A stretch of 64,000 nt of DNA from Escherichia coli (GTDB lineage: Bacteria; Pseudomonadota; Gammaproteobacteria; Enterobacterales; Enterobacteriaceae), in the NCBI RefSeq assembly GCF_044324875.1, contig NZ_CP172185.1; one strand, written 5' to 3'. Below, one piece after another: positions 1 through 28,182 of this stretch (positions within the stretch are counted from its first letter, which is position 1; each line of letters starts with the position of its first letter). Below the pieces are notes generated by a model, which ran no database searches, was not told where the DNA came from, and worked only from the letters and a program-made list of their open reading frames with translations. The position numbers and the translations under genes were made by a program.

Positions 1-1725
<1,725 letters not shown>

Positions 1726-1793
1726 GTCTGAATCCGGCCGACCCAAAATTTTCCCCCAAGCTTCTCCCGGTATCTTTTAAGAGTATTGATTAC

Positions 1794-3002
1794 ATGAACG
1801 ACACCGTTTTAAACGTAATCCCGGTGCCTGTACGCACTTGGGTGGCTATAGCAGCGCTCGGTATCAGTGCATTTTCGATTGTGACCAGCGAGCTTGCGCC
1901 TGTTGGCATGCTTAGTATGCTAGCAAAGGACCTGAACCAGACTGAATCGGACACGGACCTTGTCGTGACTGCATACGGCTGGGTTGGGGCTCTGGCAGCA
2001 CTTTTGTCTGGATTGATACCAGCGAGAATTTCACGTAAGTCTTTGTTAGTGACTCTTATGGTAGTGTTTGCTTTGTCTTGTGTGGCGGCGACACAGTCAT
2101 CACTCGATGACCCTATTTATGGGGGCGCGTATGACAGGCGCTTTAGCACATGGTGCTTTCTGGGCTTTGATTGGAGCAGTGGCTTCACAGCTTGTTCCGG
2201 CTGAAAAACTAGGACTGGCCACCTCAGTTATTTTTGGCGGCGTTTCGGCTGCCAGCGTTCTGGGTGTGCCACTGTCGAGTTTTATTGCGGATATGGCCGG
2301 GTGGCGGAGTGCGTTTACGGCGATTTCTCTGCTGTCACTTGCCGCCGCCTGTGCTCTATTCTGGACGCTCCCCACACTGACGGTGCCACAACCACTGAGG
2401 CTGCGTGTTTACTACGGGATATTCAAAAACCCGGTGCTCCTTTCCCTCTATGGTGCCACTGCCTGTATTATTTCGGCTCATTTTGCGGCATTCACTTACC
2501 TCCAACCACTACTGACGAAGACTCAGGAAGTACCGACGGCTTCGATTTCTGGCCTACTGCTGATGTCCGGGCTCTCCGGTCTGGCCGGAAATATCATTGC
2601 CGGAAAGCTGATCGACCGTCATATCAAAGGGCTGATTTTCGCTTCACTGCTCCTGAGCGCAGGTGCGCTCGGCATACTTGGTATGAGGAGCGCTGCACCA
2701 CTGCCTTTCTGGTTCACAGGCATACTGCTCGCAGTTTGGGGCGCGGGTATCGCCATTGTATTCGTTGGGTTGCAGACAGGTTGCTCCGTAGCGCCGGGGA
2801 TGCTGTACAACCGGCGTCAGCCATTTACGTTACAATTTTTAACGCAGCGATCGGCACCGGTGCGCTTGTGGGAGGCCAGGTATTAGCCGTAAAAGGTATT
2901 CAGGGTATGGCCTTACTTGCTGCGGGCATCATTGCATGCAGCATAGCTCTGGTCGCAATGCTGAAAAGCCCCGCGAATAAGCTCAGGCCTGAAAGGTCGT
3001 GA
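1794..3002 (+). pseudogene. MFS transporter (DHA1 / sugar-efflux-like) disrupted by two frameshifts
   Basis: Three consecutive overlapping ORFs in different frames (1722-2204, 2068-2886, 2301-3002) together give a continuous 12-TMS-like MFS protein. Frame switches fall near 2100-2200 and 2800-2880. Confidence 0.65.
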
Positions 3003-3370
3003 CGAATTCAAAAACGCATTAACCGACAGTAATTAAATGAGAGGGACGTGTCAGAAGAGGCTTCCCCTTATTTTATACGTCCAGTTCGGTAAAGAGTATT
3101 AGCCCACAGGACGAGGCTTATCCGAAACTACAACTCTGAAGGATTTAGTTAATCGCTTTAGAATTTCCAACTTCCGTTCCTCGCTCACAGCAGACCTTAA
3201 GATCTAGGAGGGAGTCCGCTCAGTGCCATGGGCGGACCTTAAGCTTCAGTAATTTGATTAGCACAATCCCTATGATAAATAGACTGGCCCCCTGAATCTC
3301 CAGACAACCAGTATCACTTAAATAAGTGATAGTCTTAATACTAGTTTTTAGACTAGTCATTGGAGAACAG

Positions 3371-3736
3371 ATGATTGATGTCTTAGGGCCGGAGAAACGC
3401 AGACGGCGTACCACACAGGAAAAGATCGCAATTGTTCAGCAGAGCTTTGAACCGGGGATGACGGTCTCCCTCGTTGCCCGGCAACATGGTGTAGCAGCCA
3501 GCCAGTTATTTCTCTGGCGTAAGCAATACCAGGAAGGAAGTCTTACTGCTGTCGCCGCCGGAGAACAGGTTGTTCCTGCCTCTGAACTTGCTGCCGCCAT
3601 GAAGCAGATTAAAGAACTCCAGCGCCTGCTCGGCAAGAAAACGATGGAAAATGAACTCCTCAAAGAAGCCGTTGAATATGGACGGGCAAAAAAGTGGATA
3701 GCGCACGCGCCCTTATTGCCCGGGGATGGGGAGTAA
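3371..3736 (+). CDS. insC: IS2 InsC (OrfA, HTH)
   Basis: Translation reads [56 protein letters not shown].... Confidence 0.85.
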
Positions 3737-4599
3737 GCTTAGTCAGCCGTTGTCTCCGGGTCTCACGTGCGCAACTGCATGCCATGGCCCGTCGGTCGAA
3801 GGACTGGCAGGATCGTCGGTGCAAGCGCAAGCCTGATGATACTGACGCGCTGGCCCGTATCCATACCGTTATCGGCGATCTGCCCACCTATGGTTATCGT
3901 CGGGTATGGGCACTGCTGCGCAGACAATCAGAAACTGACGACATGGCGGTGATCAATGCCAAACGCGTATACCGCATCATGCGTCAGAATGCGCTGCTGC
4001 TTGAGCGTAAACCGGAAATACCGCCATCGAAGCGGGCGCATACAGGGAAAGTGGCCGTTGGAGAAAGTAACCAGCGGTGGTGCTCTGACGGCTTCGAGTT
4101 CAGCTGTGATAACGGTGAAAAACTGCGGGTCACGTTCGCTCTGGACTGTTGCGATCGCGAGGCACTTTACTGGGCGGCCAGTAACGGTGGATATGACAGT
4201 GAAACCGTGCAGGACGTCATGCTGGGTGCCGTGGAGCGTCGTTTCGGTAACAGCCTGCCGACATCCCCAGTTGAGTGGCTGACAGACAACGGTTCAGCCT
4301 ACCGTTCTTATCAGACGCGTCAGTTCGCCAGAATGGTAGGACTGGAGCCTAAACATACGGCGGTACGTAGCCCGGAAAGCAACGGGATGGCAGAGAGCTT
4401 CGTGAAAACGATGAAGCGCGATTACATCAGCATCATGCCGAAACCCGACGGGTTAACAGCGGTAAAGAACCTTGCGGAGGCCTTCGAACATTACAACGAA
4501 TGGCATCCGCATAGTGCACTGGGGTATCGTTCGCCACGGGAATATCTGCGGCGGCGAACCAGTAATGGGTTAAGTGATAAAAAGTGTATGGAAATATAG
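3694..4599 (+). CDS. insD: IS2 InsD (OrfB, DDE integrase core); expressed as InsCD by a -1 frameshift
   Basis: 301-aa ORF with the retroviral-integrase-like core ...[11 protein letters not shown]...[12 protein letters not shown]. It overlaps insC in the -1 frame. Confidence 0.85.
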
Positions 4600-4613
4600 G
4601 GGCCAATCCAATT

Positions 4614-4967
4614 GCACTGTTTCGAGGCTATCCGGCGACGATAAGAACTGACCAGGGGCCGGAGTTCACTTGCCGTGCACTGGATCAATGGGCCTTTGAG
4701 CATGGTGTTGAGTTGCGCTTAATCCAGCCGGGCAAGCCAACGCAGAACGGATTTATTGAGAGCTTTAACGGACGATTTCGCGATGAATGTTTGAATGAGC
4801 TCTGGTTCAGCGATATCGTTCATGCCAGGAAAATTATTAATGACTGGCGGCAGGATTATAACGAATGCCGCCCGCACTCCACGCTGAATTATCAGACACT
4901 GTCTGAATTTGCAGCGGGCTGGAGAAAGGGTCATTCTGAGAATGAAGATTCCGACGTTACTAACTGA
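4614..4967 (+). pseudogene. C-terminal remnant of an IS3-family (IS407-group) OrfB transposase, cut by IS2
   Basis: Begins immediately after the IS2 end and reads ...[54 protein letters not shown]...[10 protein letters not shown]. This is the DDE-core tail typical of the IS407 subgroup. No upstream half is present. Confidence 0.7.
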
Positions 4968-4979
4968 GTGTTGTATCTA

Positions 4980-5646
4980 ATCGTGGGGGCAGGTCACAGC
5001 TATACGGACACGGTCAAATAGAGCACTTGCTATAACTGATCTTAAACATCCTAAATTTGATGTTAGAGTTCAGATACATAGTTCTGCCGCAAGGTATGCA
5101 GATAAGTTAGCTGCTGAAATAGTTTCAGCATATTATGATAACTCTGAGCTGGCATATGAAAGCGATTCTCCGTTTCAATTTGGTGTTATTCGAGTTCCTC
5201 GTAACGCTACTCACTTTGAGCATTCATTATATGAAAAGTACTCAGGACTTAATAAGTTCGAGGCTCCTTTTGCTGAGGCTTTAGATAGGTCTGGTTACCC
5301 TTGGCACAGAAACCTGAGCAGTGGCGGTTTTCATATCCCACTATTGACAGAGGGTGATACAAGCTCATTTTATCCAGACTTTTTAGTATGGAAGTCAGAC
5401 CTTGTCTATTGCCTTGATACCAAGGGGGGCCATCTATTGACTGCTGCCGTAGCGCGCAAGCTTTTTAATATTCATGAAGATGGTCGGAGTAAGATTCTAG
5501 TGAGATTTATCACAGAAGGAAAGCAGACAGAGCTGCGCGGCAAAGCAACAAAGGGAGGATATACTGTATGGAAAATGAAATCTGGGCATCCTACCCCAAT
5601 TTATGTGGCGGATTTAGACAAAGCTGTTAGGGAATGTCTAAAATAG
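4980..5646 (+). pseudogene. C-terminal fragment of a restriction-endonuclease-like (type III Res-like helicase-nuclease) protein
   Basis: Low-GC open frame without a start codon. It ends ...SSFYPDFLVWKSDLVYCLDTKGGHLLTAA..., a PD...(D/E)XK nuclease motif (PDF...DTK) of the kind found at the C-terminus of type III Res and related defence helicases. Confidence 0.45.
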
Positions 5647-27794: not shown

Positions 27795-27889
27795 CTGGCG
27801 GAAGATCACAGGAGTCGAACCTGCCCGGGACCGCTGGCGGCCCCAACTGGATTTGAAGTCCAGCCGCCTCACCGGAGACGACGATCTTC
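27795..27889 (-). tRNA. selC: tRNA-Sec (selC)
   Basis: The reverse complement matches the E. coli selC sequence GGAAGATCGTCGTCTCCGGTGAGGCGGCTGGACTTCAAATCCAGTTGGGGCCGCCAGCGGTCCCGGGCAGGTTCGACTCCTGTGATCTTCCGCCA (95 nt). Confidence 0.95.
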
Positions 27890-28182
27890 CGCGCCTCGAT
27901 TGCTACATGGAGGCGGGGCGCATTATAGCTACTTCCTTGAGTTTCTACATCCCCCAGATCAGTTTTTTCCGCCTAATACACGCAGCGTATTATCACGGAA
28001 GCATTATAATTCATATAAAACCCATATTTTACAATGATATATGAGCGGAATTAACGCTACCACGATCACATAAAACAAGAATCATAAATTAATAACCAGA
28101 TATCGGAATATTCGCTCTCACAGGGATGGTTTACAAAATGCGTTATCGGTCTCAGCACCCCTATAGCATCAAGGAAAAGCAG

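Follow-up and report, generated by a model that had tools for sequence, protein, structure and literature searches.

The region studied here lies in a 64,000-nucleotide stretch of the Escherichia coli contig NZ_CP172185.1, which we call the window and whose numbering we use throughout. An island situated between setC and the selC tRNA-Sec gene (27796-27890) occupies this part of the window, and it carries a fos (fructooligosaccharide) locus and an integrase. The region corresponds to AGI-3, which PMC12928451, referring to Chouikha et al. 2006, gives as the genomic island associated with selC in the avian pathogenic E. coli strain BEN2908. The fos locus, the integrase, and tRNA-Sec are common to both, and the match to BEN2908 is ~100% across the junction described below. 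The two differ in a degenerate IS66-family element that BEN2908 carries in addition (L017 ~1617-4300; 3/3 genes are pseudogenes), located inside the 277-bp spacer after approximately window position 3116. This element is lacking in the window, in LH50-c, and in OY754364.

On the left, a truncated aldo/keto reductase gene, a frameshifted MFS transporter gene, and the spacer follow one another. An insertion sequence (IS) of the IS3 family comes next, and the 3′ remnant of a second IS3-family element, ISSen4, adjoins it on the right (Table 1). The 5′ part of the aldo/keto reductase gene (157-1179 and upstream) is truncated by IS100 (IS21 family), whose istA is annotated as frameshifted in LH50-c and as intact in the DP051 copy at the same position. 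The MFS transporter gene (2068-3002) is broken into the overlapping open reading frames 2068-2886 and 2301-3002. LH50-c, BEN2908, Z247, and DP051 all have it annotated as a pseudogene, which places the frameshift before the spread of the module.

Table 1. Features at the junction between the left-hand island module and ISSen4, in window positions.
Feature	Position	Strand	Description
Spacer	3003..3279	.	277 bp, end of left-hand island module; last 5 bp ATAAA
IS2::ISEc27 hybrid IS	3280..4610	+	1331 bp; IS3 family, IS2 group (assigned from sequence); coding capacity intact
IS2-derived arm	3280..3753 (IS positions 1-474)	+	left terminal repeat, whole orfA, frameshift site, ~20 first orfB codons
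Hybrid orfA	3371-3736	+	
Hybrid A6G slippery site	3688-3694	+	intact
Hybrid orfB	3694-4599	+	
Crossover interval	3754..3761 (IS positions 475-482)	+	8-bp block CTCCGGGT common to IS2 and ISEc27
ISEc27-derived arm	3762..4610 (IS positions 483-1331)	+	most of orfB (DDE catalytic region), right terminal repeat
ISSen4 3′ remnant (IS3 family, IS407 group)	4611..4996	+	positions 836-1221 of 1221, 386 bp

The central element starts with TAGACTGGCCCCC and ends with GGGGCCAATCCA, as read from the sequence and aligned to reference copies. It has two overlapping frames with a -1 frameshift at the A6G site, a helix-turn-helix domain in OrfA, and a DDE (rve) domain in OrfB; the encoded proteins carry the Pfam domains HTH_Tnp_1, rve, and rve_3. 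IS2-type imperfect terminal inverted repeats (TAGACTGG... / ...ATCCA) are present at its ends. The left one matches IS2 at 41/42 positions, and the right one is identical to that of ISEc27. On its gene organisation, domains, and ends, we assign the element to the IS2 group of the IS3 family. The NCBIfam model for “IS2 repressor TnpA” scored 276 bits and that for “IS2 transposase TnpB” 612 bits, in each case above the cut-off, and the RefSeq label is that of an intact ISEc27-family transposase with a programmed frameshift.

We then compared the element position by position with K-12 IS2 and with ISEc27. ISEc27 and ISEc36 are IS2-group elements of Enterobacteriaceae, and we use these names here as they stand in the RefSeq annotation. 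K-12 IS2 and ISEc27 differ at 252 positions, which served as informative sites. The first 86 of these are IS2-type in the element with one exception (85/86), and the later 166 are ISEc27-type without exception (166/166), so that there is one switch only. The hybrid composition can thus be read directly from the informative sites: the last IS2-type site is IS position 474 and the first ISEc27-type site is IS position 483, and the block between them sits 18 bp 3′ of the orfA stop codon. There are no indels, and the length is exactly 1331 bp. The sole difference between the IS2-derived arm and K-12 IS2 is a G at position 32, which we take to be an ordinary IS2 polymorphism because another IS2 copy in DP051 has the G too. 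The element is an exact in-register hybrid with an IS2 left part and an ISEc27 right part. An earlier note on this DNA, made from the sequence alone, had called it a complete IS2 of 1331 bp with both ends recognisable; the length and the ends hold, and the identification as IS2 does not, since the right 64% is ISEc27.

Identity values agree with this division. Over its whole length, the element is 87.5% identical to K-12 IS2A (99.8% at positions 1-460 and 80.9% at positions 461-1331) and is therefore not IS2 sensu stricto; at 93.6% whole-length identity to ISEc27 (82% at positions 1-460 and 99.7% at positions 461-1331), it is not a whole-length ISEc27 either. Along the element, identity to K-12 IS2A is 99-100% over the first ~450 bp and then 56-90%, and identity to the ISEc27-family copy of strain 5270 rises from 74-90% in the left part to 100% in the right part. 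The length of 1331 bp, the left terminal repeat, OrfA (100% as protein, K-12), the A6G site, and the essentially identical first 474 bp are shared with IS2. From position 483 on, the element differs from IS2, with ~81% identity in DNA, 84% in the OrfB protein, a right terminal repeat that deviates at 5/42 outermost positions (7, 23, 27, 28, and 30), and no 5-bp duplication. With ISEc27/ISEc36, the element shares its right 849 bp at 99.7-100% identity (comparison with the strain 5270 copy, L010), a stretch that takes in the catalytic region and the right terminal repeat, and OrfB is 98.7% identical to that of ISEc27 as protein; over the left 474 bp identity is no higher than 82%, and 5-bp duplications flank the reference copies. 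We also considered two local properties that might mark the position of the switch. IS2 and ISEc27 share identical stretches of 34, 27, and 23 bp elsewhere, all longer than the 8-bp block, and a crossover at the longest block of shared identity was rejected. DNA folding of window positions 3700-3820 gave z = 0.32, and no hairpin or fragile structure is found at the crossover.

The 5-bp flanks of the hybrid are directly seen to be mismatched, with ATAAA on the left (3275-3279) and ATTGC on the right (4611-4615), exactly as the earlier note had reported. Base-level re-examination revealed no matching 5-bp repeats, and no duplication of 3-6 bp appeared around the hybrid when the boundaries were shifted by up to 3 bp. 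Perfect 5-bp duplications flank K-12 IS2A (ATTAC on both sides) as well as four ISEc27/ISEc36-type copies from other genomes (5/5), and the mismatch at the hybrid is therefore a meaningful and real anomaly.

Each flank occurs without an IS in other genomes. On the left, in DP051, SCEC020001, and VE-V10-F (L007-L009), the spacer runs uninterrupted through ATAAA into CATGCAGTTGCAG..., and the DNA past ATAAA in these genomes encodes a 505-aa hypothetical gene, an IS30 remnant, and a restriction endonuclease. On the right, an intact 1221-bp ISSen4 is found at the same chromosomal position, adjoining fosR, in at least 18 complete E. coli genomes. In strain S51 and others, it reads ...GGACAGC-ATTGC-ACTG, contiguous with the 5′ half, and has CAGC on both sides. 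The earlier note had proposed looking in related genomes for an intact IS407-group element at this position, and this ISSen4 with its CAGC duplication, found at the exact position in many E. coli, is that element. Since the left and right sites are each uninterrupted elsewhere, ATAAA and ATTGC are halves of two different target sites. We take ATAAA to be the target of IS2, and ATTGC, the first 5 bp of the ISSen4 remnant, would be that of ISEc27. Two features expected of a scar left by recombination between IS copies are accordingly present in the DNA itself: each flank comes from a different uninterrupted site, and the single switch among 252 informative sites is internal evidence of exchange.

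The ISSen4 remnant shows 99.9% identity to strain S51's intact copy (L001 5166-6386), of which it represents the 3′ 386 bp together with the terminal repeat and the CAGC flank. Its right terminal repeat ends ...GGGGGCAGGTCA at 4996, the IS407-type terminal repeat TGACCTGCCCCC lies at 4982-4996 and, with the sequence identity, identifies the element as ISSen4, and CAGC at 4997-5000 is a copy of the 4-bp target duplication of ISSen4 itself. The OrfB C-terminus (4611-4967; 118 aa, rve/rve_3) is in frame from the first base past the hybrid, and here the earlier description of an IS407-group OrfB C-terminus beginning at that base was accurate. It had placed the limits of the whole structure at 3003 and 4967, which needs correction at both ends: the remnant reaches 4996 with its terminal repeat, and 3003-3279 lies outside any IS. 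A complete ISSen4, with both ends and both frames, is not what the window holds, as 386/1221 bp remain, and the 5′ 835 bp are absent throughout the 64-kb window, in agreement with the earlier statement that the left side has no matching 5′ half. Since OrfA has been lost together with the frameshift region and the N-terminal portion of the DDE domain, the remnant is dead.

To place the hybrid among other genomes, we relied on 5,426 complete E. coli genomes. Full-length copies at 99.9-100% identity occur in BEN2908, LH50-c, and OY754364, always at this locus only, a restriction that is directly apparent from the gap to the next-best full-length match (93.6%). On plasmids, the best IS matches to the hybrid are ~93-94% identical, among the matches listed. 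Several further genomes carry shortened forms. USMARC-49610 has the hybrid from position 105 on and derives from an LH50-c-like structure through a deletion of ~26 kb. JNE170426, E100341, LH85-a, and CP134663 keep the right junction, and their ISEc27 part breaks off at approximately position 494, where the beginning of an IS66 tnpC is joined to it. The right junction, in which the ISEc27 right end meets the ATTGC of ISSen4, is common to eight records with differing left sides, and it is therefore older than the left-side rearrangements. Judged by its sequence, the scar appears to be a passive structure, in which the hybrid has intact frames and shows no sign of having moved.

The junction is, in our judgement, very probably the product of one in-register crossover between an IS2 and an ISEc27 in the same orientation. 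One parent would have been an IS2 in a CP4-57-like island module, with the pentamer ATAAA, downstream of the MFS pseudogene, as its insertion site. The other would have been an ISEc27 at ATTGC, at ISSen4 position 836, at the far end of the fos island adjoining selC. Both parents would once have been simple insertions. An exchange within or beside the 8-bp block at IS positions 475-482 would leave a single hybrid, with the IS2 left end and orfA joined to the ISEc27 orfB and right end, which would retain half of the target duplication of each parent. The loss would comprise the initial 835 bp of ISSen4 together with everything to the right of IS2. One such crossover accounts for the exact length and mixed composition of the element, for its two unmatched half-duplications, for the missing 5′ part of ISSen4, and for the restriction to a single locus.

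We searched for both parents and for the reciprocal product. An ISEc27 or hybrid within intact ISSen4 is defined by a junction of GTATTCTGGACAGCATTGC followed directly by TAGACTGGCC. In the complete E. coli genomes, a synthetic junction query did not find the parent with ISEc27 in intact ISSen4, and gave only two-piece matches, to other IS2 insertions ~410 bp away. Exact-pattern searches of metagenome contigs and species-representative genomes gave zero matches to this parent. An IS at ATAAA with a DP051-type continuation is defined by ATCCA followed directly by ATAAACATGCAGTTGCAG. The parent with IS2 at ATAAA was found neither in the complete E. coli genomes nor in exact scans of metagenome contigs and species-representative genomes. 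The IS2 of seven genomes, a candidate for this parent, was rejected, as it lies ~208 bp upstream of the breakpoint and at a different site. A reciprocal hybrid, with ISEc27 on the left and IS2 on the right, does not occur in the complete genomes (best match 92.8%), which makes an inversion or a retained cointegrate unlikely; deletion and replacement both fit. Related genomes thus show the two uninterrupted sites, and among those searched they yielded neither the parental insertions nor the reciprocal product.

Several other histories can be weighed against the single crossover. In a transposase-mediated adjacent deletion, a single IS residing in ISSen4 would attack ATAAA on the same molecule, its right junction would be kept, and the DNA between would be deleted. 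The eight records that share the right junction and have different left sides look as if one end had been fixed, and adjacent deletion is an often-cited source of IS copies without a target site duplication (PMC11708052). One element cannot, however, turn from IS2 to ISEc27 part-way, and other left-side variants truncate inside the IS (positions 105 and 494) and not at the IS end. Classical adjacent deletions are not expected from the IS3-family transposition pathway. IS2 transposes by way of a figure-of-eight and then a minicircle, and its right end alone acts as donor (PMC3299598); an adjacent deletion is a poor fit to this pathway. We consider this history very unlikely. The earlier note had named either an adjacent deletion or recombination. 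Its core inference of a rearrangement at the IS, as opposed to a simple insertion, was right, and of the two routes it is recombination that the single switch from IS2 to ISEc27 at positions 475-482 bears out and adjacent deletion that is disfavoured. A gene conversion, in which an IS2 copy overwrote the left 474 bp of an ISEc27 in ISSen4 with no crossover and a separate deletion changed the flank, would explain why the IS2 arm extends to the IS tip, like a tract reaching the end of homology. It leaves unexplained why the flank changes exactly at the IS tip and why the ATTGC copy is lost, so that a second precise event would be needed, and a genome with the ISSen4 5′ half to the left of the hybrid was looked for in complete E. 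coli genomes, metagenome contigs, and species-representative genomes, and none was found. This reading, too, is highly improbable.

It is also conceivable that a mobile hybrid existed beforehand and inserted in ISSen4, duplicating ATTGC, and that its left flank was later replaced through a second hybrid copy or an event ending at the IS tip. The orfA, frameshift site, orfB, and both terminal repeats of the hybrid are intact, and mosaicism is known among ISEc27-like copies, for example in L012 with its patchy identity of 86-100%. Against this, no second copy exists in the 5,426 complete genomes or among the best plasmid matches listed, and two rare events are required in place of one; we regard the proposal as unlikely. 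A different emphasis would make the hybrid a working new IS formed by module exchange, with the DNA-binding OrfA and left end of IS2 combined with the catalytic OrfB and donor right end of ISEc27, and with the region just past orfA as a favoured site of exchange among IS2-group elements. At this locus, two independent breakpoints do fall within ~20 bp of each other, one at the crossover (475-482) and one at the JNE170426-type IS66 tnpC fusion (~494). We hold this interpretation to be quite doubtful. Finally, copies of an IS are classic sites of misassembly, and a repeat-induced misjoin across two IS copies could in principle create such a junction. Three independent complete genomes, produced by different laboratories, share the same structure, however, and it occurs elsewhere with further changes (the IS66 insertion in BEN2908 and the 26-kb deletion in USMARC-49610). 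Its presence in independent assemblies with later modifications excludes an artefact.

For the preferred reading of a crossover between IS2 and ISEc27, more than one route of exchange may apply. Between sequences 18% diverged, classical RecA recombination should be rare and should take place preferentially in longer blocks. With so short an identical block, and with parents of only 82% identity, the exchange could have been RecA-driven recombination of diverged sequences or a RecA-independent event involving short homology or template switching. With regard to topology, the crossover may have been a deletion between direct repeats on one chromosome, or the setC-proximal segment may have been replaced by incoming DNA, in which case the ISs would have been the site of one crossover and shared sequence that of the other. 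Such an import is as plausible as a deletion inside a tandem island. The left-flank module of DP051 is located within a pap/kps pathogenicity island, far from selC, and the DNA “lost” to the right of ATAAA therefore need never have been at selC.

Recombination between IS copies is a known source of copies without a target site duplication, the E. coli long-term evolution experiment being one example (PMC11708052). As in those scars, one IS is left here, half of each parental duplication is present, and the DNA between or beside the parents is lost. Known scars usually arise from identical copies and carry no internal mark; here, the partners are 82% identical and the crossover maps to 8 bp. 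Because the partners are different elements, the crossover is directly visible, where usually it can only be inferred from missing duplications. A duplication-less IS scar is a known and ordinary class of structure with no new biology, and the only unusual feature of this one is that the partners are different elements. The junction accounts for the assembly of the composite selC island of BEN2908-like avian E. coli: a CP4-57-like segment with Ag43 and toxin-antitoxin genes was joined to the fos sugar-utilisation island via a pair of IS copies. It further provides a clear case of crossover between insertion sequences that are just 82% identical. In addition, it calls for caution in annotation, as labels such as “IS2” or “ISEc27 family” can mask hybrids.

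We made several smaller observations at and around this locus. A GTG-started frame of 127 aa (4584-4967) begins inside the hybrid's right terminal repeat, crosses the junction, and continues in frame through the ISSen4 OrfB C-terminus; as a potential fusion product, it is probably meaningless. In USMARC-49610, the deletion extends from inside cbtA to hybrid position 104 (L003 6001; L014 LH50-c 9912, 35935; window 3384), with 3 bp of microhomology at the joint, and the left end of the IS is lost. This genome has an annotated CbtA with N-terminal codons from IS sequence. In the four IS66 fusion records, as in JNE170426 (L002 5918-6001; window 3773), the fusion takes the first ~20 codons of the IS66 tnpC. 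The sequence AACTGC(G/A)TGCCATGGCC is common to both partners across the ISEc27/IS66 tnpC joint, and this breakpoint is 12-20 bp from the hybrid crossover.

The 99-bp segment 3181-3279, at the end of the spacer, was found in ~30 complete genomes with different DNA to the left of 3181, for example in SCEC020001, which makes 3181 a further module boundary. Seven of the ~30 genomes have an IS2 that ends ~109 bp upstream of the segment. In Z247 (L006 6973-6981, 9681-9688), the IS66-family element ISCro1 is present with the 8-bp duplication TGATAAAC (window 3272-3279), which overlaps ATAAA. The same few bases of this AT-rich spacer were thus targeted by two unrelated IS families.
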